From NCBI GenBank assembly GCA_038087875.1, contig CM075992.1, positions 10,046,001 to 10,110,000 on the forward strand: DNA of 64,000 nt, written 5' to 3'. The position numbers and the translations under genes were made by a program. Below the pieces are notes generated by a model, which searched no databases, was not told where the DNA came from, and saw only the letters and a program-made list of their open reading frames with translations. This document shows positions 1 to 61,682 of the stretch, piece by piece; the stretch's first letter is position 1, and each line of letters opens with the position of its first letter. The DNA is from Malacoraja senta (lineage: Eukaryota).

Positions 1-959
1 TGATGCACCTTATGTCTAAAACTGCCACATGCAATGACATTGCAGGTAGCTGATTGGAGTGGGACCCATGCATGATTCATTTGTGATGGCCATTTTAAGC
101 TACTGATTCACAGGGGCTGTTAGACGATGTCTTCAAAGTTTAGTAGTTGCATTTCATAAATGGTAGGGAGCAGAATTAGGCCATTAAGCCCTTCAAGTCT
201 ATTCAGTCATTCAATCACTGCTGATCTGTCTCTCCCCCCTAACCCCATTATCCTGCCTTCTCCCCATAACCTCTGACACCCGTACTAATCAAGAATCTAT
301 CTATCTCTGCCTTAAAAATATCCATTGACTCAGCCTTCACAGCCTTCTGTGGCAATGAATTCCACATGCATTCCTGCAGTGAGCATTCATAAGAGCCATT
401 TGTAAAACTAAACACTGCGAAAAAGAAATCTTAGACATTAATGTTGGTTTAACTTCAGGACCTCTATGCGTCTGCAAAGATCAGCATTTATTTCCCATCT
501 CTACTTGCACATGACGTTAGGATTAAGCTACCTTCTTGAGCTGCTGCAGTCCTTTTGGTGAAGGTGCTTCCACAGTGCTATTGGGAATGGAGTTCCAGGA
601 TTTAGACTCAACCATGATGAAAGACTGGTGTGCAAGGAGGAACGGCAAATGATGATTTAAACCAAAGACAGACACGAAAAGCTGGAGTAACGCAGCAGGT
701 GAGGCACCCATCTCTGGAGAAAAGGAATAGCTGCCGTTTCGGGTTGAGACCGTTATTCAGACTGAAGCCAGTGGAAAGGGAAATAGATATAGACGATAAA
801 TAGGATAAATGATTGGCAAAAAGCAACGGTAATCAAGGAAAGGTAGAGGCAACAAGAGTCCTTGTTGGATGTGGGATAGGTGATAATGAGTTATGCAAAC
901 AGATTCGACAGGGTGACAGTAAAACTAGTACAACGAATAGGGTGAGGGGGGGATGGAGA

Positions 960-1310
960 GCAGATACAAGGGTTACTCGAAGTTAGAGAAATAATAATCA
1001 TACCGCTGGGTTGTAAGCTGCCCAAGCGAAGTATGAGGTGATCTTCCTCCAATTTGTATTTGGCCTCACTCTGACTATGGAGAAGGGCCAGGACAGAAAG
1101 GTCAGTGTGGGATTGGGAAGGGGAGTTAAACTGTTTGGCAACTGGGACATCACATAGGCCTAGGCAGACTGAGTGAAAGTGTTAAGCGAAACGATCGCAT
1201 AGTCTGCACTTGGTCTCGCCAATATATAAGAATCCACACATTGAACAACGGAAACAGAAGATGACGTTACAAGGAGGAGATGCAAGTGAACTTCCGCCTC
1301 ACCTGAAAGA
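960..1310 (-). mobile_element. Penelope-like element, GIY-YIG fragment
   Basis: Minus-strand FTCIS..VIFCFRCSMCGFLYIGETKCRLCDRFA*HF remnant; pseudo-LTR sequence extends to ~655. Confidence 0.75.
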
Positions 1311-4120: not shown

Positions 4121-4231
4121 TGACTCACCACTTCAAATCTGACCGCCATTTGATAAGATCATGGCTGATCTGACAGGAACCTGAACTCGCCTGTCCCTGT
4201 ATCTTCTCCCTTGACTCTGTCCAGCGACCCA

Positions 4232-4900
4232 GACAGTCCTCTCAGGTTAGGCAGAGGTTCACTTGCACCTCCTCCAACCTCATCTACTGTATCCATTGTT
4301 AAAGGGGTAGACTATTATGCATCGGTGAGACCAATGGGAGCCCGGGCGATTGTTTCGCTGAACTTCGCTCAGTCTGCCTGGGTCTACCTGATCTCCCGGT
4401 TGCCAAACACTTTAATTCCTCTTCCCATTCCCACTGACCTTTCTGTCCTGAGCCTCCTCCATTGTCAGAGTGAGGCCGAATGCAAATTGTTGGAACAGCA
4501 CCTCATATTTTGCTTGGACAGCTTACAACCCCAGTGGTATGAATATTGATTTCTCGAACTTCAAGTAACCCTTGCTCTCCGTCCCTCCCCCACCCAAGTT
4601 GTTGTATTGGCGTCAACGCCATCTTGCTGAGTCTCAGGTGGCTCTGAGGTGGCTCATTGTCTGTAACTCATTTTCACCTAGGCAACAGGAAACAATGGAT
4701 TGCTTCCTTTATATTGTTACTTTTCTGCATATCTTTCATTAATTTGTTCTATATCTCTCTATAGCGCAATCTATATCTCTTGTTTCCCTTTCCCCTGACA
4801 TTCAGTCTGAAGAAGGGTCTCGATCCGACACGTCACCTATTCCTTTTCTCCAGAGATGGTGCCTGTCCTGCTGAGTTTCTCCAGCTTTTTGTGTCCACAT
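4232..4900 (+). mobile_element. Penelope-like element 3' part (GIY-YIG + pseudo-LTR with hammerhead-like motif)
   Basis: QVRQRFTCTSSNLIYCI..CIGET..; KLLEQHLIFCLDSLQP; CTGAAGAAGGG motif at ~4807. Confidence 0.75.
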
Positions 4901-4936
4901 CCTCACACTCTGAGATTGTGACCTTTGGACACTTAT

Positions 4937-7900
4937 AATAGTAAGATTAAACGAGAACTTACCTAAGTTTGAAGTTTGATCTTTATTTTATGAGGAGTCA
5001 CGTGAGTGACTACGTGAAGATTTTAAAGCTTTGTGATTTCATGCCGCAGACAAATCCCGGCTTCTCACTGCATTGATTGACTCGGAACGAGAATATTCAA
5101 TAATGCATTAATAATAACATTTGTACCACAAATGCAGTAATTCATTTATTTGAATAAAATAATTAATAGTATCCCCTTTAACCCAGGGAAAATTAAGCAG
5201 AACTTAATATAGTATCTGCAAACAGTCCCGTATTGGCAATAGCCCGATGGTAAAAGTGTTGAAACACCAACTTATTAGATCACCCGGCAGCTGTGAGAAT
5301 ATGATCGACGGGACTTCCTTCGCCCTGGTCGTCAATGTTGCTGCTAAACTGAATGGAATGTAAAACCATCAATGTTCACACGTGCAGCAACTAAAACTTG
5401 TTTTTAACCATCTTAAAATAGTCTAAACTGACACTATCTTGTATGGTTTTTCGTGAATGATAAACAACCTTGTTTTCATATTTCATAAGATCTTTGTAGC
5501 CTCAATTTTTTGCAATAAATATGTCTTAACATATAGACATGGATCCATAGAATATGTTAATAAAATAATCTTGAATCCTGTCACACCTGATCCTACTTCA
5601 TTTGAGTAGTTCATAAAATGTAAAACATAACATAATCCTGAGGTACTTCTGTGTATCTGTAACTTTGTAATGTTACAAGTGCCATAAACATGACTACCTT
5701 CATGCTGAACTTGGCCAAATCAGAATCGTACCAAGACTCATTTGATGAAGTAGCTTAAAACAATTCTACATTCCAGATTCCCTCCTCGGTTTAGAAGGTC
5801 TGGAATTAAAATTCCTTTCATTAATCTGGAAATAAAAGAACGAGACTCAACAGGATGTCTTTCCAACCTCATCAAATAAAAACGAGGAATAATATACTTC
5901 TGTGTGAATAAATCGCACTATACCTCAACCCATTAAATAGAGGTCAATCCAAGATATTTGAGACGTGCCGTACAACATTCCATATTCTTTTATACACAGA
6001 ATTTTTTTCCCCTCATTCTATACATAATGGGAAAGCAGTATTTACAGAGTCACAACTCAGATTCACAAATGTACTGCTTTTGAGTACTCTTCCGCCAGAC
6101 TGCTGTAAGCATGTCCCCAGCATGCCCAGACAATCCTCTTTTTTAAAACCTGCATCCATACAGGCATATGACGGATGTTACTCTCCAATTATCGAATACA
6201 CCAGTAACTTCCTTCTTTTGGGAACATTTATCAGAAACTGTCATAAATTCCAATTCCCATCTGGTACCACGAATACCCCAGAGGCAGCATACTGCTTCCT
6301 TTTAAGCAGACACCGATTTATGAGACAGGATGAAGTAAAATGCATATAACAACATACCATCCTAATATAGCGAGAAACATCCATCGCTACTGTCTCCCGA
6401 TGTAGTCCCATAACACATATCTCTGTAACTGGTGATTGAGTCTGGATGGAAACAAGTCATATCTGGCTTCCCAAATCTGACTATTATATCATTAAAAAAT
6501 CTTAAGGTTAAACATCCATTCTTTGTTATCATGGAAATTCCACCTATACAATTAATACATGCCATTGCTGTAGTGTTGTTAATTTGAAACTGAACATGCA
6601 GATTAGTTGTATTTAACAACAAGCTTGTAGCTCATAAGCCTTCCAATAGACTTTAAAACGTCGATTCTCCATGTCTGTAAAATAATACTTCTTCCATATT
6701 CCATCTGTCCACAGATGGATACCTTTTTGAGTGGCACCAATCCTAGTACACTGATATCAGTCTGTTAAGACCATGGAAGGTTGTTCAATCCGTATCTTGC
6801 TTGAACTACTGAAGACATGTTAAATCCACTACTGCAATCAGAAGCAGCATTTGTTGTTTAATTGCATGGCCTGTCAAAAAATGGCCATCATGCATCTCAG
6901 TGTTTTTTCTTTTTGCAGTCTGCAGCTGCTGGCAGTCCAATGGCCCATATTGTATTGCTGGAAATAACACTAATTCTCCTAACAAGCTGGCCACCTGTCT
7001 TAATTGAAGATTGTTGCTTTTCCAACTGCTTAATACAACCATCAATTAGCTTTACCCTTTACCCTGGGTAAATTACTACCTTTTCAATTGAATCAAATAA
7101 TCAATTGTTGTAAGTATCGTTAACTTAATTTCTCTCTGGATGAATTAAACCCAACTTTCAAAAGTGGTTTGAATAATTTGAGAGAGATACCTCACGAATT
7201 CTCTTGTTCGTCCTAATTAGGACATCATCCAGTCAAGCCATCCACATCTGTCCTTGGACTCTAACTAGCCGCAAAATTGGTTTTACCAATTTAGTGAATT
7301 TCTAGGGACTGAAGTTAACCCGTTAGACAGAACTTTGAATTGCCATAATTGTTCCTTTAGATAATTTTATCTTATAAATGAACAAATACTAAGTAATATA
7401 CATCTTTCAGATCTATAAGTGCCATAAAACATATTTTTTGAAATAAATTGTTTGGCAGTCTCAGTCCCTATTTTGAAGTGTCTATACTTCACAAAATGTT
7501 AAAGACTTGTCAGATCTAAAATACTCCTCACCTTTTTAGGTTGAGAAATTTTAAACACAATTTGGTGGTTTTGATAAACCGACCTTTCAATTACTTGTTT
7601 ATAAACAAGTTTTCAATTCAGCTTGAACCTCCATCAATTATTTTTGTGAAATTGGAGTGTTCTGCTTGGAACATGCTGGATGGCAAATCAGTATTTGAAT
7701 CGAATCAATTAGAAACCTTTCTATAATACTCAGAATAATAACTGAAGTAATTTGCTTCCAATATTTGGCTGTTTTTGCCTTAATATGTTCCCATAAGAAC
7801 CAGGTCCACCTACCTCCTTTGTCATCTGAGTGACCTGTGGTCCCTGGCTCCTGGCAGGCAAAACCCACGCTTTTTCGTTTTCCTGCTGCAGGACATCAAC

Positions 7901-11719: not shown

Positions 11720-12900
11720 CTTCCTATAATCAAAAGTAATCAAAACGGAACACAGTTCTCCAAGTTTTGTCTCACCAACGTCCTGTACAACTGTAAAATA
11801 CCATCCTAACTTCTATACTCAATACTACAAGTGATAATTGCCAATGTACCATGAAGCTTGACCAACGTATCTACCTTTGACATCACTTTCATTGCATTGT
11901 GTACCTGTACTTCTAGATTTATCTGCTCTACAATGCTCCCCAGGGCTCTTCCATTCACTCTGAATGTCCTGTCCTGGTTTGACTTCACAAAATGCAACAC
12001 CTCGCACTTATCTGCATTAAACTCCATTAGCCATTCCTCAGCCCACTTGCCCAGCTGATCAAGAGCCAGCTGTATTTTTTCATAACCAACTTTATTATCG
12101 ATGATACCACCCACTTTAGTGACATATATGTAATCTTACTAAGCATATTCTCATCCAAAACATTGATCAAAACTACAAATAGCAATGAGCCAAGCACCAA
12201 TCCCCGAGGCATACCACTAGTCACAGGCCTGCAGACTGAAATACACCCTTCCACCATCACCTTCTGCTTCCTTTCACAAAGCTAATTCTGTATCCAGTTT
12301 TCTATGTCCCCCTTGATCCCATGCAATCTAACCTTCCAGGGCAGCCTTACATGCAGAATCCTACCAAAGGCCTTGCTGAAATCCTTATAGACATTGCCAA
12401 TGGCCTTGCCCTCGTCAACCTTCAAAAAACGAATTTAAATTTGTAGAACACAATCTCCCACGTACAAAACCATGTTGACTATCCCTAATCAGTCCCTGTC
12501 TAACTGCATAAGATGTGTAAGAAAGAACTGCTGATGCTGGTTTAAATCGAAGATAGACATAAATGCTGGAGTAACTCAGTGGGACAGGCAGCATCTCTGG
12601 ATCTTAGTCTGAAGAAGGGTCCCAACCCAAAACGTCGCCCATTTCTTCTCTCCAGAGATGCTGTGTGTCCCTCTGAGTTACTCCAGCATTTTGTGTCTAC
12701 CTGTCTAACTGCATGTACTGTATATCTTATCCCTCGGAATACTCTTCAGTAAGTTGCCTTCTACAGATGTTAGGCTCACTGGTTAATGGTTCCCAGGCTT
12801 TTCCTTGCAGCCCTCATTCAATAGATGTGCAACATTAGCCACCCTCCAGTTTTCCGGCATATCTAACAATGAATCATATATCTCATCAGGGCCCCCATTA
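11720..12900 (-). mobile_element. CR1 LINE RT fragment
   Basis: VTSGMPRGLVLGSLLF..IN; LDQLGKWAEEWLMEFNADKCEVLHF. Confidence 0.85.
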
Positions 12901-16300: not shown

Positions 16301-17972
16301 TCCACTTGAGTCTTGCTCCAGAAGATTCTATCATTTCTGTTGTGCCATTCACCTTGCCACTTCAAAACAGTGCGATATGAGTTTTCTGTTACTTATAACC
16401 ATGTTACAATTCTGGAAAACTGTTTATATTGCTCTGCCTCCCACTATACTGTAGTGTACACATTTGTCCAGATTCCATATTCCTTTGAGTGCCCTTCACC
16501 AGATATTTAGAGGGAAATGAAAAGCGGAGACTTCGTAGGTTTGCTTCAAGAGACTTTATTGCATGATATCATGGAGAGATGGCGGCAGTTAACTGCTCAC
16601 CAGTTCTCTGATTACATAGCAGAATTAGCCGACAGTTATACTTTGCAGTAAACAACTTTTGTTTTTTATTAGATACAACTATTCAAAAATATACTATCTA
16701 CTACATGGGTACCAATTATTTCATTAGTCATAACATACTTTTTGTTTATGTCAATCTTATTCAACAACATGTTTAATACAAGACAAACACAATACAAGGG
16801 CATCTTGACATTATAAGCGAGTTCGGTATTCCGACTACGCATGCCCAGCTCATAGGTCACGAGCTATAAATAGTGCTCAAAGATCCTAGAGGAGGAGAAC
16901 AAAAGCCTTATCTCCCGATGTTGAGAAGATCATGTTGGTTCTTTTGGGTAATTAGATCCTGTTTATATTGTTGAATTTGTGGAATTCCCTGCCACAGAGG
17001 GCAGTGGAGGCCAAATCTTGGATTTAAGAGAGAGTTAGATAGAGCTCTAGGGGCTAGTGGAATCAAGGGATATGGGGAGAAGGCAGGCACGGGTTATTGA
17101 TAGAGGAAGATCACAATGAATGGCGTTGCTGGCTCGAAGGGCTGAATGGCCTTCTCCTGCACCTATTTTCTATGTTTCTATGTTTCTATGTTTCTAAAAG
17201 AGACACTCTGATCCAAAGGTCAGCGAGTCTAAAAAAGGAAATATAAGGTTTTATGTCTGAATTCATAACATTCAAAAGTTAGGAATAAACTCTAAAAGAA
17301 TCAAGTAACAGAACATAAAAGATTACAGCGAGACAAGCGACATCTCTGGAGAGAAGGAATGTGTTTCGGGTCAAGATCCTTCTTCAGACTGATGTCAGGG
17401 GAGTGCGCAGTACAGAGTTTAAATGTAGTTGCAGACAATAGGACTGGTCAGAGAACTGGGAAGGGGATGGGGATGTGTCTATCTTTGATTTAAACCAGCG
17501 TCTGCAGGTCTTTCCTACACAGAAAACATTACAGCACAGGAAGACGCCATCATGCCGGTGCTGATAATGTTAAATGTACGCCTCCCCTAGAGTCATATTG
17601 CCCCATTCCCCAATTCCCTGCCTGTTCATGTGCCTCTCTTAAACACCACCATCATTCTACTTCCACCACCACCACTGGCAGCACTTGCAACAAAATCTTT
17701 TCACTGAACCTCAGTACACGTGACAATAAACTAAACTAACCAACTAACAAGCACCCACAATTTTCTGTGTAAATGGAGAGAGAGGGCTAATGATTGAAAC
17801 ACAAAAGGATCTAGTGTTCTGTGAAAACTAAATGTTTGCTGACAAGTCTTTAGTTTAGTTTATTATTTTCCCGTGTGCCGAGGTACAGTGAAAGGCTTTT
17901 GTTTACGCGCAACCCAGTCAAAGAAAAGACTATACGTGATCACAATCAAGCTGTCCCACATGTTGTTAAGAA

Positions 17973-18067
17973 GTCTGAAGAAGGGTTTTGACCCGAAACG
18001 TTGCCTATTTCCTTCGCTCCATAGATGCAGCCTCAATCGCTGAGTTTCTCCAACATTTCTGTCTACC
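17973..18067 (+). mobile_element. 95-bp hammerhead-motif mini-insertion with TSD
   Basis: TSD TTGTTAAGAA (17963-17972, 18068-18077); insert starts GT-CTGAAGA-AGGGT-TTTG-ACCC-GAAA-CGTT. Confidence 0.8.
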
Positions 18068-19329
18068 TTGTTAAGAAGGCAAGTGGTATTTTGTTATTTA
18101 TTGCAAAAGTGGTTGGGTTTAAGAATGGGGATATTTGTTATAATTATGCAGGTTGTCGTGGACGCTAATACTGACATGGTGCACAGTTCTGGTTCGCCTA
18201 TCCAGAAAGGAATTGGACACAGTCCAATGGAGAACCTTCAGACTAGCTCTTGGGAAGGAGGAATTGTCCTGGGCAATTTTGCTTCTTCATTGCTTAAGGT
18301 TTAAAAGTACAAACATGTGATCATATTCAAACATGTAAATTCCTGAAGGGGCTTGACAGGGTAGATGGATGTTAAATTGTTTTCATAAGTGAGTTAGGTC
18401 CGAGAGGGGAGAGCTTCAAAATGACGGGATCATCATTTAAAACTGAAGGTCCCTGAACTTTTTACTTCGAGGGTAGTAAATCATTGAAGGACCTGGCCCT
18501 GATGGATTCGGCAACTGGTGAAAATCACACGGGGCTTCTTTGCATCTTCCTCATACGTCATAACCCATTAAAAGCGTGTACTCTGCAATTGTGGAATTTT
18601 ACGTTCCCCATTCAAATTATTGACCCTTGTTATGAAACACCCAGGCACAGATTCTCAGTAGTTTTTCCTTTCACCCATTTATCCCTTCCTTATTTCCAGC
18701 TGTCAACCAATTCCCAATATTTGGAAGATTTTGGCCAGGCCCTCTTCAATTTTCGCCCTTTCGTTGCTCTGCATTCCAACAGTCCGACCTGGAACAGATG
18801 AACCATTAAGTCCAAGTTGAGTTGTTTTTTACCAGTGTCTTCTCTTTATCAGTCCACAAAATGAATACGATCATCATTAGTTGATTTGCTGAGATTCCAG
18901 ACATATGTTTTCCCTTGGACAGATTGATGTAAAAAACATCAGCTTTTGGCCTCTCCCTCCATTAGTTTATATCAGACTGCCCCCATCTTGCTTTAAATCA
19001 TTGATGTGCAACTCTTTCAGACTGATTTTACTGATTATGTACTTAGAAAATCATTTTGGTGTTCTTCTTGGTTAGAGTTACCAACTTATCCCTTTACCTC
19101 TCTTCCCTCGCTCTTTGCCTTCACTCATACATTTGTGAAATTAGCCATTCATATATTTCTGTTAAGGCCCATACATTTGCTTTAATCTACTCCAATTTAG
19201 TGTCCATTTTGGTCGAGAACAAACTGATGCTCAATTTCGCAAGCCTTCACCCTCCTGTGACGAACCATTGAAATCACAGCTATGTTAAATGTCAGTTCTG
19301 CAGAGCAGGATTGGATGCTGGTTTAATGG

Positions 19330-22670: not shown

Positions 22671-22766
22671 TCCAATGTCGTCCTTTACAGTCATACAGTT
22701 TGGAAACAGCCCCTTGTCCCATTTGCCGGCATCTTGCGGGATCTAAGCAAGTCCTATTTGCACGAA

Positions 22767-22861
22767 GGTACACAAAAATGCTGGAGAAACTCAGCGGGTG
22801 CAGCAGCATCTATGGAGCGAAGGAAATAGGTAACGTTTCGGGCCGAAACCCTTCTTCAGAC
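22767..22861 (-). mobile_element. 95-bp hammerhead-motif mini-insertion with TSD
   Basis: 14-bp TSD CCTATTTGCACGAA (22753-22766, 22862-22875); same ends as the 17973 copy; minus strand GT-CTGAAGA-AGGGT-TTCG-GCCC-GAAA-CGTT-ACC. Confidence 0.82.
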
Positions 22862-22879
22862 CCTATTTGCACGAATTTG

Positions 22880-28570: not shown

Positions 28571-30382
28571 GACCACATTCTACAGCTGGTATTCACATCC
28601 AATGTTCCAATTTGGCCCTCTTCTTTGTGTCCCACATGCATTCAAACTCATTTTCCCTTCTCCCCTCCTCGCTTCCAATTCTCCGCTCCCTATCGACCTA
28701 AATTCCTTCATTAGGCTTCACAATTCTCACCTGTCCTTATCTCATACCTTTTGTCTCTTCATCTCTGCCCCCACTGCTCTTCCACCCTTTCACCCCCATT
28801 ATAATGCCTTTCGGCCCACCATAGCATGCCGTCTATTAGTACATATATTTACTAATCCAATAGCCGCCATGCCTGGCCGATTCAAATCCACATTCAATTT
28901 TGCCTTGGGGGGATCTTTCTCTTCCTCATCGATGCATTTAATAACTTAGTGGCATCCGTCGGGTCACCTAGATTTCATCGACTCGAAGGAAAACCAATCC
29001 ATGCTCACAACGGAAACAAAACGTCCAGGCAAAATTATCGAATCTCTTCAAGGCTTTTCAGTGCAGTCACGCAATTCCTAAAGCACCGCAAGGACTGCAT
29101 ATAGCATTCCAGCTGTGTGCAAGGCAATGTCTTCGAAATTTGGCCCAAATCTTCATTTTTAATACATTCTCTGCCTAGGCTAATAAAATATGTTACAAAC
29201 GAGTTATTTGGGGAGTTTCATTGCGGGGAGAGATGAGATAGGCTGAGTTTGTTTTGACTGGAGAGACGGAGACTATAGTGGTGTGTACTATGACGAGAGG
29301 CATGGATACAGAGGATCTTTTGTCCAGGGTATGGGTATTAAATCCAAGAACATGATTAACGTATGAGGACTGCGTTTTAAAGGGGATCTGATGAGTTTAC
29401 TTTACACAGAGCATGGGTGGAGATCTGGAACCCGCTGTTTCGGTTCACGATGGAATGACATACGGTGAGGCAACTAGTAAGTTATTTAGTGTGTAGGAAG
29501 GAATTGCAGATGCTGGCTTACACCGAAGAGAGACACGCATAATACTGGAGTAACTCAGCGGGACAGGCAGCATCACTGGGGAGAACGAATGGGTGACGTT
29601 TCGGGTCGAGACCCTTCTTCCGACTTCTTTGAAAGTTCTGAAGAAGGGTCTGGAGCCGGAACGTCATCCATTAATTCTCTCTAGTAAGGTATTTGAATAG
29701 GATGAGCTCCTCCTATTGTAGTAGGATAAAGCGGGAATATGTGATTATTGGCATGGGCACGGAGAGCCGTAGGGCCGGGTTTGTTGCCGCCTGACCTCTG
29801 GCTCTCTGAACCCATCTACCAATGCTGCCACTTTGACGTGTTCTCTGGATTTGTGCACCGATGCACGTGTGTTCAACAATATATCCATTGTTGGTATATA
29901 CCCTGTTTGTATCGGACACTCAAAATACATTGCTTCACATGTGCAGGGACAAAATGACATCAGTCATTGTACCGCATTTGATGTCTTCTATCCACAGCTC
30001 CCAAGAAAGGACATCTACCAGATTCCGTAACGCCGTTTTGATGTCAATAGATGCTGCCGGACTGCTGTGGCTTTTCAACATTTCCTGTTTTTATTCCTTA
30101 CTCGGAAGATACACACTGAAGAGCGGGACATTTGTTAGATGGTGCGATTCACAGTCGCGGGGACATGCGGACGATTGTTGTACGGTTCCATGCAATGAGA
30201 AAGATTGTCATTTGAACGATAGGCTTTCTGCACATTATGAGTGCAGAAACAAATCCTGATAAAGACACACATATTGTACCCCTGCGGAAAACGACAGAGC
30301 CTCACTGGGCACATGGTCACTCCGAGCTGAAATCGCTTTTAAAACATGGTGGGAGGGACTCAATAAGGCAGAACATCTAGGA

Positions 30383-31109: not shown

Positions 31110-32020
31110 TCATTTGTTTAGTCTATTAATTAAATTAATAATTGACGTGAATGGATATTTTGCTGCATTCATGAATTGTTCTCTAAACTTGGACTGCGTC
31201 ACTCCATAAATAAAGGTATTTGTGCAGCAACTTAATGTCCGTAACATGTATCCTGACTGTGAAAATATGTGTTCCGAATCGCTGTAATTATTGGGATCCG
31301 CCCTGGCAATTGTGTAGTAAAAGAATTCGACAACGTGCAGCAGCCACAAGAGGATGAAGCTGCCGGATATGGTGAAGAGCAAGATCATGGATCTCCTCCT
31401 GCTCTGCATTTCCGGGTCTCTGCTGTTCTCCCCGTTGTTTGGAACCTTCAGTCCCTTGCGGACGCGATTTGCCGCTAAAATGTATCTGACTGTCAGAGCG
31501 TTGAGCAACAGTATGACCGCGAACGGGATCAAAGGTGTCAGGATAGTATCCATCCAATCAAATGCCACCCACCAGCGATTCGTAAAGTAGCTCGGCTTCT
31601 CGAAACAGTCCCAGGGTACGTTGTCGACCACCCTCGACGGCTCTTGAGCAAAGTAGAAGGGAATGTTTTTCAGACAGAACAGAAGACCAGTAGTTGCCAG
31701 AACCGCGGCCGCTGTTTTCGCGGTGCAATATTTTGTTTTCAACTTCTGGCAGCAAATGGCAACAAAGCGATCAAAGGTGAAAGCAACGGTGAACCAGACA
31801 GAGCATTGTACTGCTGCGTTAAGCAGTGCGGCGATTACACTACAAACAGGCGTGATGTCCAGGAACGTCCCCCGAAAATAATAGTAACTGATTCGCCATA
31901 GTATAACTTCAGTTATGATAGTCATCAGATCGGCCGCTGCCATGGCCACCAGGTAGCGAGTGGTGCAGGTGGAGAGGCCGCACTTTCCCCGGGACAGGAT
32001 CGCTATCGCCACTAAATTCA
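31110..32020 (-). CDS. gpr139-like: Class A orphan GPCR, GPR139/GPR142-like, coding exon 2 (end of TM1 to stop)
   Basis: Uninterrupted 303-codon ORF with seven-TM pattern: NLVAIAILSRGKCGLS, TM2 YLVAMAAADL, TM3 FTFDRFVAICC (DRY variant), ECL2 Cys (PWDC), TM5 PLIPF..LLLNALT, TM7 SCCTNTFIY (NPxxY variant). Splice acceptor tttgtttttccag|TGAAT on the minus strand (AG at 32022-32021), so the ORF-track GTG start is an artefact. Confidence 0.9.
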
Positions 32021-32174
32021 CTGGAAAAACAAATTAAACAATTACTGAAATTATTCTCATGTCAGTCACCGGGTCTCCGGCCAGACGGTTGTGGCTGACT
32101 TTGCCTAGTCAAACTTTGATTCAAGGTCAGCGAGGCGTGGACATTTAGAATGACGACAAGGAAGAAGAGACGTA

Positions 32175-33429: not shown

Positions 33430-34715
33430 AGAGTTCGACGTAGGTACGAGTCAGGGTGGGTCATTAGGTAGTGGGGGGGGGGGGGGGGGGTTGTAGGCTA
33501 GTTACCTAAAATTGATAGTTCAATTTATACGGTTGGGTTGTAGGCTGCTCCAGCAGAATATGCGGCGCTATTTCACCCAATTTCGTGTGCAAATGAGGTT
33601 TCGGGACAGAAAGGTCGGTATGGTGAAGGAAAAGGGGATTGATATGAATAGCAACCGGGAGATCCAGTACGCCTATGCGGACCGAGTTCGGTAAAACTGT
33701 TGCCTTGTTCTATGAATCTATGCTTAGTCTGGACAACGTGAAGGAGGCCATGCTGGGAACACTGGATGCAGTAGATGAGGTTAGAGGAGTTATTCATGAA
33801 CCTCTGTCTTATCTGGACGAACTTCTGAGGTCCCTGGATGGAGTAGAGGGAGGAGGTATAAGGACATGTGACGCATCTCCTACTGTGGTTGGGGAAAGTA
33901 CCCGGGGAGGGGCTGGGGAGAATGGTTTGAATGGGAGGGATGCGTAAACCAAGGAGTTGCAGAGGGAGCGGTCACTGTGAAAAGTGGAATTGGGTGAGGG
34001 TGGGAGATGTGACTAGTGGCGGGATCACGTTGGAGGTGTTGAAAATGTCGGAGAATGCTGTGTTGTATGCGGAGGCCGGTACGGTGAAAGGTATGGACCA
34101 GTGGAATTTTATCATTGCTCCTTCTGGGGGGAGAGGGGGGTCTAAACTCCTTGATTCATTCACCCCCCTCCCCAAACCACGCTCTCCACAGGTACTTTAC
34201 CATGTTGAAGCAGGAAATGTAACACCCCTTCCATTGACAGTATGAGGCCACATGCAAACGGGATGAACAGCATCTCATGTTCCGTTTGGTTAGCTTACAG
34301 CCTAATGGTATGAACATTGAATTGTCCAATTTAGGTACTAACCTCTAATCCCTCTACTCCCTTCTACCCTCTTCCCCTCTTTCCTGTTACCGACCTGGAC
34401 TAGCACCAGTTTCTGCCAACCCCTCCCCTACCACATACATTCCTTCCTCTGGCTTCACTATTGCTACCTCTTCTATCCTTACCGCACACCTTTTGCCTGT
34501 TTACCGCTGAACTTTGTGCAACCATGTACCAGTCAATGTCCACAACCCCCTACCCGTTTCCAGCTAACACTCGCTGAGCTTTCTGTTGCTCCTCATCTCT
34601 TGCAGCATCCCCCCTCCTGCACAATCAGTCTGAAGTAGGGACCCGACCTGAAAGGTCAGCTGTCTATGCTCTACAGAAATGCTGCCTGACCGCCTGCGTT
34701 ATTCCAGCCATTTGG
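33430..34715. mobile_element. Penelope-like element with inverted segment
   Basis: Minus-strand SSNLIYCIQCSQHGLLHVVQTKHR (GIY-YIG) at 33570-33800; plus-strand copy of the same family from ~34150 ending in the hammerhead-like pLTR at ~34630. Confidence 0.7.
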
Positions 34716-35897: not shown

Positions 35898-36575
35898 GTG
35901 TGCAAACAAAGTCGGCTCTAATAAAATTATCTGTTATCTGCCGATTTGGAAATCCCAACGGTTCGTCATCTGATTTATAGATAATCTATCCCTATTGACA
36001 GGTCTGAAAAAGGGCCTCGACTCGAAACGTCATCAATTCCATTTCTCCAGAGATGTTGCCTGTCTCGCGGAGTTACTCCAGCTTTTTGCCTACAGGTAAT
36101 CTATCCTTTGCTCCCATGAAATTCGCGTGCGCTCTATATCCTCGGCTATTTTCAAACTTCCTGAAATCTCTGGAACACATCTTATAATACTTTATTTGAT
36201 ATTTAGCTAATAAATTAAAGTATATTGTGGTACTAACAACGAATAAACGCCACCTCCGCGTCCCTTAAAGTCCGGATGGTACCGAATTACTGGAGTTTAA
36301 ATCGTAATCATAACTCCTCTGGCGCATGCCATTAGTTTGCAAAACCAAACCTTCTCCCACCACTTCCTCCGTGCGGCTGTTTCAACTGTTTTTCAGCCGA
36401 TACAACAGAATAAATCACAGACGGCGCTTCCTGACTTGCAATGATTTTTTTACAGACATCCACGCATTGTTTACAGATTTATCTCTAATACAATATTGTC
36501 CAGGACAGGACGAGTCCGTAGAATGTTACACTCGTACAAACAAAATTACAAAATGTATGTTGCTTATGTTCTTAC

Positions 36576-36811: not shown

Positions 36812-37499
36812 TTCATGTTAGCTGGCAAATGTAATGAGGTATGTTTTGCTACACACTGGGATTGCATAATGTGAGCCAGGAGGCAATAATGACCCGAATG
36901 TTGGGTTCTTGTCGGAAAACAGACCTGATACTCATGTGCACCTAACACATTGTCTCTTTTGACGTTTTTTTGGTCGCGCTGCTACATTCTGTCACATTTC
37001 TAATTTCACTGTTACCACATAATTTAATGTGGAAAATGTTGGTTAAAACTCATTCGATCATCAAGAAAACTACGTGTTTACTATGTTTACGTATTTTCTT
37101 TATCGAAGTCATGATGGTAACAGAGATTTTATATTGAAGTATCTCTGTTAGAAACATAGGACATAGAACCCTTTGGCCCACATTGTCTATGGCGACTGTA
37201 AAAAGCCAAGATAAACTACTCTCTGAAAATAAACATAAAAAGCTGAAGTAACTCAGCGGCAACATCTCTGGAGAGCAGGAATAGGTGACATTTCGGGTGA
37301 GACCCTTCTTCAGATTAGTTAGGGATAAATGAAACGAAAGATATTGAGATAAAACAATGAATGAAAGATATGCAAAAAAGTAACGATGATAAAGGACAAT
37401 AGACAATAGACAATAGGTGCAGGAGTAGGCCGTTCGGCCCTTCGAGCCAGCACCGCCATTCAATATGATCATGGCTGATCAAGGAAACATGCCAATGTT

Positions 37500-38158
37500 A
37501 GTTGTTTGTTGGGTGAAAACGAGAAGCTGGTGCGACTTGGGTGGGGGGAGGGGTGGAGAGAGAGAGAGGGAATGTCGGGTTACTTGAAAGTAGAGAAATT
37601 AATATTCATACCACTGGGCTTGAAGCTGCCCAAGCAAAATGTGAGATGCTGTTCCTCCAATTTGCACTTACCCTCACTCTGACATGGAAGGAGAGCTACG
37701 ACAGAAAGGACAGCGTGGGAATGGGAAGGATAATTAAAGTGTTTAACAACAGGGAGATCAGGTAGGTCCAGGCTGACTGAGCGAAGGCCTTCAACGAAAC
37801 GATCACCCAGTCCACGCTTGGTGTCACAGGTGTAAAAGAGTCTACATCTTGAACAACAAATGCAATAGAGGAGGTTGGAGGAGGTGCAAGTGAACCACTA
37901 CCTAGGTGTCGGGGTCCCTGGACAGAGTCGAGGGAGGCGGTAAAGGGACAGGTTGCAACTTCTGCGGTTGCAGGGGAAGATACCTGGGAGGGGGTGGTTT
38001 GAATGGGAAGGGATGAGTTAACCAGGGAGTTACAGAGGGAACAGCCTCTGCGGAAGGTGGAAATGGGTGGAGCTGAGAAAATGTGACTAGTGTTGGGATC
38101 CCGTTGGATGTGGCGAGAATTTCGGAGGATTATGTGATGTATGCGATGGCTGGTGGGG
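37500..38158 (-). mobile_element. Penelope-like element fragment
   Basis: FTCTSSNLLYCICCSRCRLFYTCDTKRGLGDRFVE.L and CKLEEQHLTFCLGSFKP remnants. Confidence 0.75.
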
Positions 38159-42525: not shown

Positions 42526-45500
42526 ATGCCAAGAAGAGGGAGATAAAGAGCTGCAGGATGGTCAAGGAACAACGCAAAGGGACGTCGAGAAGCAGCAAAG
42601 AACAGAAGGGAACAAGAAACGCAACTAGAGACAACTCAATGTCTCGCAGATCAACGAGAAAGAACGCAAAGCAGTAGGGGTGAAGAGTCGCAACAAAAAA
42701 GATGTGAGTGTCTCGAGGATCAACGAGAAAGAACACAAAAAAGGGAACAAGAGTCGCAACGAGAAAAAACTGAGCATCTGAAGGATGATCGAGAGAGTAC
42801 GCCAAAAAGGAGGGATAAATTGATGCAACAAGAAACAACTGAATGTCTTGAGGATCAACAAGAAAGAATGCAAAGAAGAAGGGATAAATAGATGGGAGTT
42901 GAAAGATCTAGAAGACTGGCTGAACAGTGGGCCACAGCTACAACAAGATGAAATGTACAACTCGCAAGGAGAAATCTTTCTGCTGATGTTGGCGAAATGA
43001 GCAATCTTTGCCCTCGGTGTCGAGCATACCGTTTCTCTGGAGAAAACACCAACTTTTGCTGCATGAAGGGTCAGGTGAACATTGCTCCTCTGCGGGCACT
43101 GCCCGATGAACTCATGAGACTGTATACATTTGACACGCCAGAAGCAAACAAGTTCAGAAAGAATAATAGACAATACAACTGTCTCTTTCAACAGACGTCA
43201 TTTGTTGCCAAGGAAGTGGTGCCACCTGGATGGAATCCTTCAGTGATAATTCAAGGACAGATTCATCATTACCTTGGCCTGTTGGTGCCTGAACTACACT
43301 AGCATAGTCGATTCTTGCAGATCTATTTTATGGACCCCAAGATAGCATTGAATTGCGAATGGGTATACTGCAAAATGATGGTATTCAAAGGGAAATTGTT
43401 GCAATATTTGAAACCTTGCTAAGACATAACAATTACATTGACATACTTAAAATGGCGAAGGAAAGAATTCGAGGTTTACGAGAGGCATTAATCGTCATTC
43501 TTCCAAATCGTCGACCAGCTTTGCAACACAAAAGACGGTTTATTGCACAAATTTCCAATGAAGTTGCAGTTGTAATACCAAACGATAATGACCCTCAGGC
43601 AATATCATGGCACATTGTCTTGAAAGAAAGAGGAGGATGCCTGAAAACCATTTCAGAGTGTAATAGGTCGTATGATAGTTTTCAATGCATCCTTTTATTT
43701 CCACATGGAGATGATGGATGGCATCACCAACTCCAAATGAGTAAGCACAAGATATTGACAGCAATGCGATATTATGCCCACAGGATCATGAATCATGATA
43801 ATGAATTAAACGACCTTTTGAGAGTAGGACGACACTTTCAACAACATGTCGTTGATATGGCAGCTGAGAATTAGCCTGATGAGCTCAATTATATTCGCAT
43901 GAATCATGCATCGTCGAGATCAACAAATTACAGAGGCCTCATGGATGTAATAAACGATAATGATGATTTGGAAAACATCGGAAAGCTCATCATGCTCTCC
44001 TCAACATTTGTTGATGGACTGAGATACATGATGGAACGATGGCAGGACGCCATGATGTATGTTCGGAAGTATGGCAATGCTTCATTCTTCATTACGATGA
44101 CTTGCAATCTGAAGTGGAGCAAAATGCGACAGTGCCTCTTTCACAATCAGCAGCCATGTGATAGACCAGACATTATTGCAAGAATATTCGATCTGAAAAG
44201 GAAGGTATTCATTAAGTACCTTACTGGACCACATGGCCTCTTTGGCAACTGTATAGCTTTCGTCTCCACTGTGGAATATCAGAAGAGCGGTCTGCCTCAT
44301 TTGCACGGTCTGCTGTGGCTTGACAAAGCGAGTAAGCCAAGACCAAGACATTTTGACAGATTTATGCAAGCTGAAATACCAGACCCGTAAGTAGATCCAG
44401 AGCTGAATGAATTGGTACTCAAGCACATGATTCGTGGACCATTCTGCAACCACACCTCTCCATGTTGGAAGGATGGAAGATGCAGTAAAATATTCTCAAA
44501 GCCATTTTTCGAGAGCACAAGGTGTCGACATGATTCATATGCGCTGTACAGGAGAAGATCTCCAGACAGGAGAGGATTTCAGGGACATCAAGACAGACAT
44601 CGGTATCAACGTACTAATTCTGATTGGGTGGTGCCCTATAATGTTCAACTATTAAAGATATTCACATCTCACATCAACGTTGAGATATGCTCCTCTGTTA
44701 AGTCAGTCAAATACGTGATTAAGTACACCTTGAAAGGGAGTGATCTAGCAACTTTTCGAGTTAACAGCGATGACGAAATTATACAGTACTTGACTGACAG
44801 ATACATTGGTCCATCAGAAGCAGTATCATCAATCCTTGGATTTCTGATCACGAGAGGCACCCCGCTGTCTTTTAACTCCAGGTACTAAGCGAACAACGAG
44901 TCATTATCAGAATCGATGCTCCTCAACGAGTGAGGAATGGTTATATGGCGAGAACGACTTTAATTGAATTCATGGGATTGTGTTCTCGAGAGCCATTTAT
45001 AAGAACACTCCACTACACTGATGTTCCCCGATTTTACACGTGGAACAATAGGAGATCGCAAAGAAGGAACGTTGGCAAGAGAGTGGAAGGTCATCCAGGT
45101 ATTTTTCAAGCCAATGTTCTGGGACGAGTGTATACGTGTCTCTCAGGTGTGGTGACCTCTACTACATGAGTGCTTTTCCATCACGTAAAAGGGCCAGTAT
45201 CCAATTCATTGAAGACACATGATGGAGAAATTCCCTTTTCCTTCAAAGATATCTGCAGACAAAGAGCTTTGTTACACGCTGACGACCATTGGCAATAAAG
45301 AATGGAAGACACCAACAAGACAAGATTCACCAGTGCATTGAGAGATTTGTTTGTTGTTTTGCTGATGAATAATGACATCAACAATTCTCGACAATTATGG
45401 GATCGCTTCAAGAATTCAATGTCTGAAGATTACCTTGAAAGAGACGGAGAACAATGCGTGATTCCAATATGATGATTGATGAGAAGCATCATGCTTTCAT

Positions 45501-47845
45501 TTGCCACGACCAAGAAATAGAAGTATGCACCTTGATGATTACAACCCAGAATTGTTGCAGGAATTGCAATACAATACAACTGAATAACAGCAATTTGTTC
45601 AGGACAGTAAGCCACTCCTGAATGCTTAGCATAGAGCAGTGTATGACCAGGTGTGAGACTGCTTGAAAATGAAGCTTCCTTCAATGTTTTTCATTGATTC
45701 ACCAGGAGGAACAAGGAATACATTTATCACCAATTTGATCCTCTCAAAAGCTAGTGGTCATGGCGATGTTGCTATTGCTGTAGCATCCTCTGGGATAGCA
45801 GCTACATTATTGTCTGGTGGAAGAACTGCACATTCTCGATTCAAGTTACTGTAGCGGCCTGGACGAGGTCAGGAATAGGCCACATGTCAGGCAGGTTCAG
45901 AAGTAGTTTAATGCAGCGGCGAGAACACACACACACACCAGCGAGCAGGACCTGGGAAACCCCATGGCAGACCAACGTCCCTGTCGTTCAAGAGCCGAGG
46001 GGGATGATCCACGGGGTGGCCTAACCCCCAGGGACCGCCACAGGACCACCTCCCTCCAAGAACCCGAGGCACGAAACGGACAGGAGGGCACACACGGCGG
46101 CCAGCCAGCCCGGGAATGCACCATGCCCAGCACAGGAACGAGCAACTGACCAACAGGTGCAGAGGATGGAGTAACCACTGGAGGAGGTACCCTAGACGGA
46201 GGGCGCCCCCGCTTACGGGGCCACACTACCAGCACCGACCAATCAATGTCAATATGCGCCGGCTTCAGCCGCGCAACCGAAGCTGTCTCATGCCGACCCC
46301 CCATGTCCAGGACGAATGTAGATGAGCCATGCTCTCTGACTCAGAAGGGACCCTTGTACGGCCGCTGGAGAGGTGTCCGATGAGTAGGCCTACGAAGGAA
46401 GACGAACTGGCAGTCCTCCAGAGCAGAGGGAAGGTGCGGACGGAAGGACCGATGACGAGACGTGGGCACCGGCGCCAGCTTGCCCACAGTCTGCCGAAGA
46501 CATTGCAGAGCGTCCGAAGGCTGCTCCACCTGGCCCTGTGTCGGCGGAATGAACTCTCTGCGCACCGTCAATGGGGACCCATACACCAACTCGGCGGAGG
46601 AGGAGGCCAAGTGGTCCTTAAGGCCCCTAATATTTGTTAGTTAACGGGGGGTTGCTGAGGTAAGGCTTAACCCGCCTCGCCGTCGCCTGGTCAAGTGCGC
46701 TGACCACGTAAAAGTATTTTGTTTCGTCAACGGGTACCCATCGCAGAGCAAATTGTGCCTCTGCCTGCTGGAACCAGATATCAGGCTCTTCCGCCCAAAG
46801 AGTAGGGAGTTTAACTGCAACGGCGCTGTTATCCATCACGATGTGTGATGAACGTCGGAGTCACCGGGTGTAGCGGCCAGGACGAGGTCAGGAAAAGGCC
46901 AGAGGTCAGGCTGGTTCAGAAGTAGTTTAATGCAGCAGCGAGAACACACACACACCAGCGAGCAGGACCCGGGAAACCCCGTGGCAGATCACGCCACTGT
47001 CCCTCAAGAGCCAAGGGGGATGACCCAAGGAGTGCCCTAACCCCCAGGGACCGCCACAATACCCATCCAAGTGACTGAGGATACATTCTGAAACATTGAC
47101 AAGAACTCTAACAGGGCATGTTTGATGAGGTAAGTGAAACTCATTGTTTGGGATGAGTGCAGGGGGAGCTTCGAAGCGGTGGACAGAACACTTCGAGATG
47201 TATGCACCAACACTGAGCCTTTTGGCGGCATTCTTACCATTTGCTGTGGCGATTTTCGACAACTCCTTCCTGTAGTGAAAAGGGGCTCCCCACGATGATA
47301 ACATGACAAGCATCAATTCTACATGTATCAGATGCATCCCTGGGATCAATAAGGAGTACTAAGGGAACTAATGCTACTCACTTCCCAACAGAATTCCTCG
47401 ATTCATTCGACATCTTTGGATTATCACCACACAAATTGGAGTTGAAAAAAGGATCTCCACACATGTAAATGAGAATTTTGGAATACCCCAAGGCTATGCA
47501 ATGGAACAAGCAAGCATGGTTGTGGAAGAACTACACAATAATCTGATCATTTCAAGAATTAACATGGGAGCCTTCAAATATGACATTGTTCTCATTCCTA
47601 GGATAACGCTCAATTTGCCAGAAGGGGAAGACATTCTCCTTCAGCGGAGCCAATTCCCGATTCAGTCAAGTTTTGCAATGGCGATCCATAAAGCGCAAGG
47701 ACAAAGCATGGAGAATGTGTTGATATACCTCGAGAAACCGGTATTTCAGCATGGACAACTATAGGTGGCTCCTAGCCAAGGAAAGGTGAAGGAAAATGTT
47801 AAAGTTTTCCTGAAGGATGGAAGATCAACCAAGAATGTTGGTTGA
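42526..47845 (+). pseudogene. Helitron Rep-Helicase (HUH Rep + PIF1-like helicase), disrupted
   Basis: Zn-finger CPRC..FCC..GQV; Rep motifs FFITMTCN, VEYQKSGLPHLHGLLW, KYVIKY; helicase motifs [68 protein letters not shown]. Multiple stops and frameshifts; split by an LTR element. Confidence 0.92.
45850..47058 (-). mobile_element. Internally deleted Ty3/Gypsy LTR element nested in the Helitron helicase
   Basis: LTRs 45850-46042 and 46869-47058 (TGTAGCGG...CCGCCACA); TSD TTAC/ATAC; tRNA-Trp-like PBS (CGGTGACTCCGACG vs TGGTGACCCCGACG) at ~46853-46866; gag N-terminus (VKLPTLW..DIWFQQAEAQF) fused to integrase C-terminus (AELVYG..LQRPYKGPF); purine tract next to 46043. Confidence 0.9.
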
Positions 47846-50800
47846 ATGATGACTTCTGAGGTAAATGCTCAGATTTTCTTTGTTAAAATGTGACCACTCA
47901 ATAATGTCGCCATATTAAAATTGTGTGTCTCTTTTCTCCATCAACAGCAAAGAGCCGTCGAAAGGCAGTGAGGAGCAGAAGGGAACAAGAGACGCAACAA
48001 GAAACAACTGAACATGTCGAGGATTAACGACAAACAACGCAAAACAGAGGGGAACAAGAGACACAAGAAAAATGTGAACTGAATAAACCTGACCTTTAAC
48101 GATTGAATTGTTGATATATTTTAAGTTATTCAAAATTTAAGCTTTAATAAATACATTTTCCATTTGCCGTGCCCGTCTGACTCACCTGCACATTTATACC
48201 TGCATGTTCTACGTCACAAAGGGAACCCAATGACCGGGAATGGCTGCGCCGCCGGAGAGCCGCTGAGAGTAGAAGGGGGGGGGAGTTTGAGGGGGGGATC
48301 AAGGATACTGGGGGGTGGGGGGGGGGGGGGTGGGGTGGGTGAGTGCGGCGGAAGGGCATGGGGCGGAGTATGGGGGACGGGTTGGGGATCAGGGGTCACA
48401 ACGGAAACCCGTCAGCCGCGCCAGCGCAGTTGGGGGCCATGGCTGAGTGGTGGAATATTGCGTTGGGGGTTGCGTTGCGTTGGGGGACCAGGCCTCCCGT
48501 GTGACAGGGACCCAACGGGTCCCACTTGGTCTAGTAAAGGATAAAAGAGAGGCAAGAGTGGGCGTCGGACCACTAAAAAATGACGGTGGAGAAGTGGCAA
48601 TGGGGAACAAACAGTAGCGGATAAACTGAATTGTTTTTTGTATTAGTATACACTGTGGAACACCCCAGCAACCTGTCAGAAATTCAAGAGAGTCGGCGTG
48701 CGTAGAAACAGCATGTATAATGAGTGCAGTCATCGTTGCTGAGGAAGTTGATAGGTCTGAAGGTGGATACCAGGATGACACCACAGGGTTCTACCAGAGG
48801 TAACCATAGCGATTCCAGAGTCACTGGAGTCTGGAATCTAAACCGTCACTAGAGTCAGGAATCGTCCCAGAGGAGTGGTTAGTCTGGGCTGGTTAGTCTG
48901 ACTTCAGTACTTCATAACATGTTAGAGTCTATTATGAACGGTATGGTTTCAGGGAAGCACAAGACAGTAGGCCGAAGGGAAGGGGACATCTGACAAACCT
49001 GACGGCATTTCATGAGAAAATAACAAGACGTGGGGACAAATAAAGGCAGTGGAAGTTATTTCCTTGGATTTTCCGGCTTTTGATAAATTGCCGCACATTG
49101 TCTGTTAAACAAAATATATTACATGTTATTAGATGAAAAGTAGTAGCATGTATGGAAGATTGTCTAACTGACAAACGGCAAAGTGTGGGAATAAAGGGGA
49201 CCGACCCCCTTTCCGCTTGGCTAGCGGTGACTAATGGTGTTCAACAGGGGCCGAGTTGGGTCCGCTACTTTTAACGTTATATGTTCATGATCTGGACGAT
49301 AAAATGTTGACACCCACTTTTATATGATTAGAATGCTTACCTTCACTACAGGATAATGCAATAGATGCCCTTGCGGAAGATACAAACGTAGTTGGAGGAG
49401 CAAGTAGTGTCGAGGAAGCAGGAGTCTGCAGACGGATTTGAACAGTTTGGCGGAATGGATAAAATAGTAGCAGATCGAATGCAGAGTAGCATACTGTGCG
49501 GAAATTCACTTTACTAGCACGAATAAAGGCCTAGACTTTGCAAAATGGGAAGAGGATTCATAAATCGGAGGTGTAAAGTGACTTGTGGGAATGAAAAAGT
49601 TAAATTTCCGGGTTGAGTCGTTAGTAAGGAAGGCAAATGCAATATTCTTTTCGACCGGACTAGAACACGAAAGCAATAATGTCAATTATTAAAGAGTCAG
49701 GCCACTTTTGAAATATTATGAACAGTTTTGAGCAGCATGTCTAAGGAAGAATGTGATGGAGTCAGAGAGGGTCCAGAGCAGGTTTACGAGAATGATCCTA
49801 GGGATGATAGGGTGAACATATGAGGAGAGTTTGATGGCTCTGGGCTTATACTCGCTGGAGCTTAGAAGGATGAGGGGGATCTCATTAAAACCTACCGAAT
49901 AATGGAACGCCTTGATAGTGTGGATGTGATGAGTATGTTCCTACTAGTGGTAGATTCTAGGACCAGAGGACACAGAATCAATATACGTAAAATGACTTTA
50001 GAATGGAGATGATGAGGAAGTTCTTTCGCCAGAGGGTGGTGAATCTGTGGATATCATTGCAACAAACGGCTGTGAAGGCTAAGTCATTTGGTATTTTTAA
50101 AGCCTGGATCGATACTTTCTAGATGAGTAAATATGTCAAAGGTTACGGGGAGAAGGCAAGAGAATGGGGTTGACACGGAAAAGTAGATCAGCAATGATCG
50201 AAGCAGACCCGACGGGCCGAAGGGCCTAATTATGCTCCTATATCCTATTGGCTTATCTGGAGGAAAACTAATATTCATCATTTATTTCTGGGGCCTCTGC
50301 ATTTAGAGCACAGGGCTAAAGGGTATTTAGTCCCGGTCGCTCATCGTCCATTGAGAGCATCAACGTCGCCCATTTCCTTCGCTCCATAGGTGCTGCCTCA
50401 CCCGCTGAGTTTCTCCAGCATTTTTTGTACCTTCGATTTTCCAGCATCCGCAGTTCCTTCTTAAACATCAACGCACCTCATGTCATTTTCTTGCTAATAC
50501 TGATTTCACTTAGTCCTCCCTCTCACTACATCCTGTGTCCCGGAGCATTACCGGTATGTTTGCATCTCCTCATCCGTGAATGAAGAAACAACGAATTAAT
50601 GCCATCTTTCTGCAACGTATCAACACCAAGTGTGCGCCATCGGAAGCGTTATCCGCCTTCATGTGTGAATTTCCTCCGCAGTTTCTGTTTGAGTGATATT
50701 GTAACTGAAGGGAAAAATCTAAATCGCTACTTGCAATATTTCGCTGTTCAAGGGCAAATACCTAATGTAGATTAATGGGAAATTTGTGTAGCAGAGGATG

Positions 50801-60845: not shown

Positions 60846-61682
60846 AAGTCAAGTGCGAATGGATGCTACACTGCAGCCTTTTCTGACTGCTGTTGCCGAT
60901 TTCCGCTTCTTTCCTGATAAACCCTATTTCCAGCAGGTTACATCAAAAGAGAAGCAAGGTGTGATAATGCAACTATTTTTTATTCATGCACATTTTATTA
61001 CCGATGTCAAGAACGTGCACTGCAACATTTTATCTTGTGGGTACAAGTTCCGATTTCCTTAAAGTCGCCGCCACAATTAACCATACACACTCCTTTCTTT
61101 CGTCTGCAATCCGCTGTACGGAAGAAAATAAAAGCTGAATAAACAGTAGGTAAATCATTTTATTTACATATGCAGCGAAATACAATGGAATTGTTGAATA
61201 ACATATTGTGTGCAATGCGGAAAACACAACTCCTGGTGAATAATATCATCTTAATAACCCTTCTCCTGGTTCAACATTACAACGGAATTAATAGAATCTA
61301 GTAAATGTAGTATGTTTGCATTTCTTGAAGGTCCAAATGAAAGGACGGCTTTGGCAAAAAATATCAGCGAATGTCTCAGCTAAGGAGGAATTATGTTGAT
61401 ACAGTACAGGGAACATTCACTGGAATGATACATTCTCTGTATTAAGTCAGATGGATGCGTTCCTTTGCACCCTATCATCCAGTCGTCCTTTGAAATGACA
61501 ATATAAACAATTATCTTTCTTAAATTGTATGGACATTTTAATATATTTTGCTTACGTGGGCACGTGCACGTTTGCCTACCTCTTCTATTCGGTTCGGTCC
61601 ACTTTTGAGTGATCTGAATCCAATAAATCCTTTCACGTTCCACACTGAACCAATTAGGACTCCATGTATGTGTTTATTCGTT

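Follow-up and report, generated by a model that had tools for sequence, protein, structure and literature searches.

The 64-kb window (the whole stretch of DNA that was analysed) contains many short pieces of a single Penelope-like element (PLE) family. With a profile built from 12 copies one recovers 19 pieces at E<1e-3, in keeping with the original prediction, in which more than ten degenerate copies of a hammerhead motif were counted. The insertions at the centre of this study, their target-site duplications (TSDs) and the hammerhead of the first of them are as follows:

17973-18067, plus strand: insertion A, a 95-bp stub of the pseudo-LTR (pLTR), running from the hammerhead edge (+1) to the tail-less 3' end
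17963-17972 (left) and 18068-18077 (right), plus strand: TSD of A, 10 bp exact, or 11 bp with the common G counted
17973-18004, plus strand: minimal type I hammerhead of A, with CUGAAGA at 17975-17981, stem II at 17983-17994, GAAA and the ACGU palindrome; predicted cut after 18002
22767-22861, minus strand: insertion B, a 95-bp pLTR stub with ends as in A; core intact, predicted cut after 22832
22862-22875 (left) and 22753-22766 (right), minus strand: TSD of B, 14 bp exact
35992-36096, plus strand: insertion C, 105 bp, with a 10-bp TSD (35982-35991 and 36097-36106); it starts at -10 and its core is decayed (CUGAAAA)

A and B are 88% identical, and both open with GTCTGAAGA and close with GT(C/G)TACC. 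The two inserts of 95 bp, their common ends and their TSDs of 10 and 14 bp are all borne out as they had been described. An exact flanking repeat of a 10-mer (with up to 10 nt of jitter) is found at 53 of 20,000 random 95-bp segments. The first 4 nt of the TSD of B equal the start of the tail sequence (microhomology at the 3' side), and microhomology blurs the junctions by 2-4 nt at the 3' end and by 0-2 nt at the 5' end. The third insert, which had been presented as similar, is real and has its 10-bp TSD, but its start lies 10 nt upstream of that of A and B, and it belongs to a different subfamily (68-70% identity to A and B).

On their sequence, A and B are predicted minimal type I hammerheads, with the CUGANGA/GAAA/UH core, an extra base before stem II and a palindromic helix III. 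Both consist of a 2-bp stem I, CUGAAGA, an extra A, a 4-bp stem II, GAAA, the ACGU palindrome and H17 at unit position +30. The anatomy given in the original prediction stands for the core, stem II and the palindrome, but not for stem I, which has only 2 bp within the unit; the third G of the "GGU" stem I in B belongs to the TSD, outside the unit. A strict descriptor of core and stem II is passed at only three places of the window (A, B and 37313, the last one without palindrome). In the family majority, taken from contigs over the long copy 4145-5044, GAAA is restored at 97-99% of depth and stem II is restored as well. Stem II is paired in 91% across 11 window copies, with a covariation that is not above that of shuffles (197/500). 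Scoring against the Rfam hammerhead, which had been proposed as a check, gave no match at E<=1 over the 64-kb window and none at E<=10 on B. Two-strand folding of the A and B motifs, which ignores core contacts, does not return the hammerhead dimer as the minimum-energy fold. Neither end of the unit coincides with the predicted cut site of the hammerhead (+30/+31).

The motif resembles the minimal type I hammerheads of metazoan PLEs (PMC4209133) in the core, the extra base before stem II, the G10.1-C11.1 pair, the palindromic helix III and the occurrence mostly as dispersed single motifs. It differs from them in its stems: stem II has 4 bp here and 7-8 in Schistosoma, and stem I has 2 bp here. 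The searched supplement file of that source holds no shark or skate entry; from the look of its repeats, the host of the present family would be a cartilaginous fish.

The origin of the unit is revealed by three longer copies in the same window:

4170-4897, plus strand: long 5'-truncated Penelope-like copy, with a frameshifted GIY-YIG coding end (to ~4568), 3' UTR, hammerhead at 4805 and a tail-less end
37228-37952, minus strand: second long copy, with a GIY-YIG frame at 37583-37897, a 3' UTR interrupted by another repeat and a hammerhead at 37315
624-1309, minus strand: third long copy, with a GIY-YIG end, 3' UTR, decayed hammerhead at 762 and the tail present

The sequence of the unit recurs exactly, as a part of the pLTR, in GIY-YIG-coding elements of the window. 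Six of the 19 pieces extend upstream of the hammerhead, and at least three of these come after the GIY-YIG coding end of a decayed ORF. What the unit represents is thus that end of a PLE pLTR which carries the hammerhead, with two alternative 3' ends: longer copies follow a GIY-YIG remnant upstream or run ~36 nt further. The features of EN+ PLEs are found here: a C-terminal GIY-YIG domain with cysteines inside the core, an optional tail and a hammerhead in the pLTR. No full-length PLE copy was identified in the 64-kb window, Pfam returned no family for the three decayed endonuclease frames, and a homologue search with 33573-33968 found none among longer proteins. Decayed CxxC remnants can be seen by eye at 33.9 kb and 38.0 kb. 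The Neptune linker is CX2-5CxxC before the GIY-YIG motif, and these apparent linker remnants may point to a Neptune-like element rather than Poseidon.

Truncated insertions of EN+ PLEs (PMC8557442, PMC3846280) are like those of the window in having a pLTR after the C-terminal GIY-YIG, TSDs (8-17 bp here), a tail on one fold-back arm and a hammerhead in the pLTR. The claim that the inserts come from the local Penelope family can be upheld: A and B are TSD-flanked products of a local Penelope-like family. The difference lies at the 5' end, which is sharply fixed here at the hammerhead edge, whereas truncation is described without such a site in the accounts given by those two sources.

Fold-back insertions, for which no strand is given, and two more stubs of the subfamily of A and B are listed below:

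12495-12714, no strand: fold-back insertion with a 15-bp TSD; direct arm 12606/7-12701 with the ends of A and B, tail on the inverted arm
29474-29688, no strand: fold-back insertion with an 8-bp TSD; both arms from the hammerhead edge (29625/4 on the minus strand, 29637 on the plus strand), tail on one arm
17322-17535, no strand: fold-back insertion with an exact 8-bp TSD; direct arm from ~85 nt upstream of the hammerhead, inverted arm made of tail only
2500-2734, no strand: decayed fold-back insertion with a 9-bp TSD; arms join near the hammerhead edge, tail on one arm
59554-59707, minus strand: stub of the A/B subfamily that starts at +8/9 and reaches the end of the tail (~+128), with a 17-bp TSD (2 mismatches)
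50358-50473, plus strand: stub of the A/B subfamily that starts at about +25 to +29 and likewise reaches the end of the tail, with an 8-bp TSD

The centre of the second fold-back (29605-29650) is a small palindrome with 4-bp arms and a 1-nt loop, between arms that halt at the hammerhead edge; it is possibly a snap-back or end-joining scar.

At the 3' side there are two ends about 36 nt apart, a tail-less one at +95 and a tailed one at about +128 to +133. A, B and the arm at 12607 end within TACC(T), at the same 1-2 nt and with 2-4 nt of target microhomology, whilst the tail of ~36 nt is carried by the stubs at 59691 and 50362, the arm at 29624, the inverted arm at 12601 and the copy at 762. 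All four fold-backs have TSDs and carry the tail on one arm only. The tail of PLEs is known to be optional, 30-40 bp long and often present on one arm of an inverted pair (PMC8557442, PMC3846280). In Anolis Poseidon (PAc) it lies between two internal start sites of RT, and the template requires RNA beyond them (PMC11167929). Thus, the common 3' end of A and B is the known tail-less end of PLEs (PMC8557442, PMC11167929). The likeness to PAc of Anolis carolinensis is close, since in both cases two 3' ends bracket the tail at about 85-120 nt after stem II and there is no sign of ends at the cut site; on the other hand, the ORF of PAc begins in stem II and the present family has no ATG there (PMC11167929). 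The main text of that work makes no mention of a preferred 5' end. As regards folding, the tailed form of ~130 nt folds better than shuffles (z -2.1 and -2.9; 3 and 0 of 200 as good), and the 95-nt form has no significant fold (z 0.7 and 0.1; 156 and 102 of 200 shuffles as good).

The 5' end was analysed by a junction census, in which contigs of four of the 24 listed public runs (X1, X3, X15 and X17), possibly from related species (best share of words 0.46), were aligned at 80% likeness to the long copy 4145-5044. Of these runs, X15 is probably one of DNA. The reference is an older-subfamily copy, 72-79% identical to the A/B subfamily, and the peak holds for the family; the junctions come from contigs, which do not mark RNA starts. 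Among the loose-end rows listed (24 of 2850, selected not purely by count), the ends before 4804/4805, that is unit -1/+1, number 618/638 in X1, 861/848 in X3 and 103/87 in X15, the counts being saturated in X1 and X3 and, as contig counts, favouring unique junctions. This peak exceeds the mean per place and side by a factor of about 56-66 and comprises ~6.5% of the partly aligned contigs; in X17, 4804/4805 is not among the six rows listed. The flanks at the peak are long (median 199-248 nt), unrelated (agreement 0.31-0.34) and AT-rich. Long copies clip separately at 4802, with flanks that are shorter and C-rich, because at 4800-4801 the reference does not carry the majority sequence. The final letter of the flank consensus is G, taken as the plurality letter, in 6/6 rows at 4804/4805 and in 0/6 at 4802/4803. 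The ribozyme cuts ~30 nt downstream of the peak, and a pile-up at the cut site itself (4834/4835) is absent among the 24 of 2850 loose-end rows listed, a selection not made purely by count.

A discrete unit whose 5' end is not due to random truncation had been claimed, and the stacking of junctions on two adjacent bases in three of the four runs agrees with it. Ordinary random 5' truncation, with a common start by chance, would be in line with the heavy 5' truncation of PLE copies (PMC8557442) and with part of the window pieces: judged by eye, five of the 19 start inside the unit and six upstream of it, the others being five at -1 to +2, two decayed ones within a few nt and one at -10. Nevertheless, it is contradicted by the pile-up of about 60-fold on two bases in 3/4 runs, and it is extremely improbable. 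No published account was found of a fixed 5' end at the hammerhead edge of a PLE, nor of this shark-like Penelope family, in a search that left Repbase, Dfam and some supplements outside. Element class, hammerhead and tail are all known already; what is unusual is a 5' edge that is fixed and yet lies off the cut site.

The edge sequence, TCAGTC, is found in every intact long copy (five of six). At 4802-4808 (plus strand), where the junction peak 4804/4805 lies, the site is initiator-like and also splice-acceptor-like: we take it to fit the initiator consensus with A as +1, and presumably the splice-acceptor consensus as well. The 5' edge could be set by processing or by a barrier, namely by splicing to an acceptor at helix I, by a hammerhead that halts RT with protein bound to it, or by an endonuclease cut in pLTR DNA. 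This agrees with the pyrimidine tract and CAG found directly before the core in long copies, with the intron of D. virilis that ends at helix I (PMC4209133) and with the PAc endonuclease, which cuts near its own ORF-pLTR junction (PMC11167929). However, splicing would be expected to leave a common exon 1, and none is present in A, B, 12607 and 29624, the agreement of flanks being that of the census given above; besides, the joints listed (15 of 632) include none of splice type that ends at 4806. A stall caused by structure ought to fall on the 3' side of stem II, as with the stub at 50362, and not past stem II. We regard an edge made in any of these ways as decidedly unlikely. As a separate observation, the stop of the GIY-YIG frame (4560-4570) overlaps a sequence resembling a splice donor, which lies about 240 nt ahead of the acceptor-like edge; a pLTR intron from there to the hammerhead edge is possible, and no such joint is seen among the 15 of 632 listed.

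The fold-backs raise the question of the direction of copying. If antisense RNA were the template, the hammerhead edge would be the start of RT and not its end; head-to-head palindromic junctions have been interpreted as self-priming on antisense RNA (PMC3846280), and four fold-backs are present in the window. Against this, the start sites of PAc RT in vitro match the tail boundaries, on the 3' side (PMC11167929), the target microhomology of 2-4 nt is found here at the 3' junctions, and the variable side among the 19 pieces is that of the 5' ends. An antisense template is therefore very unlikely.

A retrozyme-like unit was also put forward in the original prediction. Non-LTR retrozymes consist of tandemly repeated units with canonical type I hammerheads and are expressed as circles (PMC7229834), and they have been found in one chondrichthyan (bioRxiv 2026.07.22.740005). 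With the present units they have in common a small size, the lack of coding sequence, a type I hammerhead, the relation to pLTRs and the larger TSDs, and monomers have also been reported (PMC7229834; bioRxiv 2026.07.22.740005). According to this explanation, tandem units would self-cleave, circularise and reinsert from RNA circles. The hammerhead core is indeed intact in A, B and the family majority, retrozymes derive from pLTRs (bioRxiv 2026.07.22.740005), and a few head-to-tail joints (4895->4802) are present. These joints were seen in at least 5, 6, 1 and 0 contigs of the four runs, compared with 877, 1195, 183 and 113 loose ends at 4895, on the basis of 15 of 632 joints listed and with the proviso that tailed arrays may exist. 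They stand at single-copy depth and make up less than 1% of the 3' loose ends. The 64-kb window holds no tandem array of the unit, and neither unit end is at the cut site. Retrozymes are defined by tandem repeats and circular RNA, whereas the units found here are solo or fold-back; they are also defined with canonical type I hammerheads having a helix I of ~6 bp and loop-loop contacts (PMC7229834), whereas the hammerhead here is minimal with a 2-bp stem I. The retrozyme reading finds no support, since the unit is a pLTR sub-stretch with the known tail-less 3' end, ends off the cut site, rare head-to-tail joints and no significant fold in its 95 nt; we consider it highly improbable. Exact-pattern scans gave no match in viral contigs, metagenome contigs (two scans) and prokaryote genomes; in a scan of prokaryote genomes with a 21-nt pattern there were three matches, taken as chance.

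The explanation that we favour, and to which we give about an even chance, is that the 95-bp inserts are copies of the segment from the hammerhead to the start of the tail, made when internally primed RT runs off a capped RNA start placed before the hammerhead core. The segment belongs to the pLTR of GIY-YIG-coding elements and comes with two alternative 3' ends. By analogy, RT of the PLE would have two internal priming sites, one on either side of the tail, the pLTR would provide the promoter and cleavage would be dispensable for insertion (PMC11167929, PMC2377424): PLE promoters reside in the pLTR (PMC2377424, PMC6765202), and in PAc hammerhead mutants still insert and no reads started at the cut site (PMC11167929). 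The stacking of 5' junctions on two bases at the hammerhead edge, and not at the cut site, would mark that edge as the transcription start. Priming on the 5' repeat copy would then give a fixed-length, "strong-stop"-like cDNA and hence a stub of 95 or ~130 bp, and two such cDNAs from both target strands would give head-to-head fold-backs with the tail on one arm. The stubs themselves are probably dead ends, because half of the initiator, the upstream one, and the RNA that follows the priming site are missing from them; the requirement for this RNA has been demonstrated only for Anolis Poseidon (PMC11167929).

Some observations bear on the run-off model in both directions. In L1, copies of capped RNA that are full-length are marked by an additional G (PMC11702581), and the G at the end of the flanks might be of this kind; alternatively, it could stem from microhomology with the target or from a variant of the element with a longer stem I, and the extra G of B sits in its TSD. 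The edge may also be read as a pyrimidine tract followed by a CAG acceptor, which counts against a start site. In D. virilis a 75-nt intron, which begins 46 nt after the TSS, ends at helix I (PMC4209133, PMC2377424), so the TSS of that element is not at the hammerhead edge. It also counts against the model that all four A/B members of the window are short and form one clade, as a short-only source element would give.

Related to this, the A/B subfamily may be a non-autonomous, SINE-like derivative of Penelope, in which short master loci (~130 nt or slightly more) with the same start would be copied in trans into daughters of 95 and ~130 bp. In the window the subfamily comprises A, B, 59691 and 50362, which form a clade (support 99/98) without any long member, and both ends of the unit are discrete. 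It is also known that pLTR sequences alone mobilise DNA in trans (PMC3846280) and that non-autonomous Chlamys elements exist (PMC8557442). On the other side, four copies are a small sample, and the short arms at 12607 and 29624 have the same ends as A and B and belong to the older subfamily, which has long copies; fixed ends consequently need no separate master. Moreover, the template of Anolis Poseidon needs RNA beyond the start of RT (PMC11167929), and this part is missing from the inserted stubs. We judge a SINE-like origin unlikely, although it deserves to be kept in view. Run-off from a capped start and a short source could also be combined: PLEs would mass-produce "strong-stop" insertions from a capped start 1-2 nt before the hammerhead, the ribozyme would cut off a capped leader of ~31 nt, and one subfamily would have become a self-propagating SINE of ~95-130 bp made of the hammerhead and the RT priming hairpin. 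This combination as a whole is doubtful.

If run-off from a capped start is correct, the template RNA has left a fossil trace in a 5' boundary that is base-exact, very common and away from the ribozyme cut site. The fixed edge argues for the copying of uncleaved RNA, as occurs in vitro with Anolis Poseidon. It also yields a prediction of the transcription start, and it bears on the role of the PLE hammerhead and on the later steps of PLE integration. The formation of stubs would also account for the mostly dispersed single minimal hammerheads of animal genomes.

Besides the Penelope-like pieces, the window contains several features of another nature:

31110-32033, minus strand: intact frame of 307 aa, in which Pfam recognises a 7TM receptor domain of the rhodopsin family (E 4e-24), apparently single-exon
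43308-47764, plus strand: broken frames that presumably resemble Helitron Rep and PIF1 helicase pieces; Pfam gave no family for 43308-43871
62619-63380, plus strand: frame with a weak zf-RVT match, below the cut-off, likely the end of a LINE of the L1/Tx1 type
58283-58944 and 60694-61255: direct repeats of about 570 bp, 88-91% identical and 2.3 kb apart, which may be a local duplication or a partial tandem of a LINE end
4925-5044: start of another high-copy repeat right after the long copy, with a rise in depth and a common upstream loose end at 4966
42601-42894: degenerate array of tandem repeats, period 66-69 bp; a related piece lies at 47979-48113
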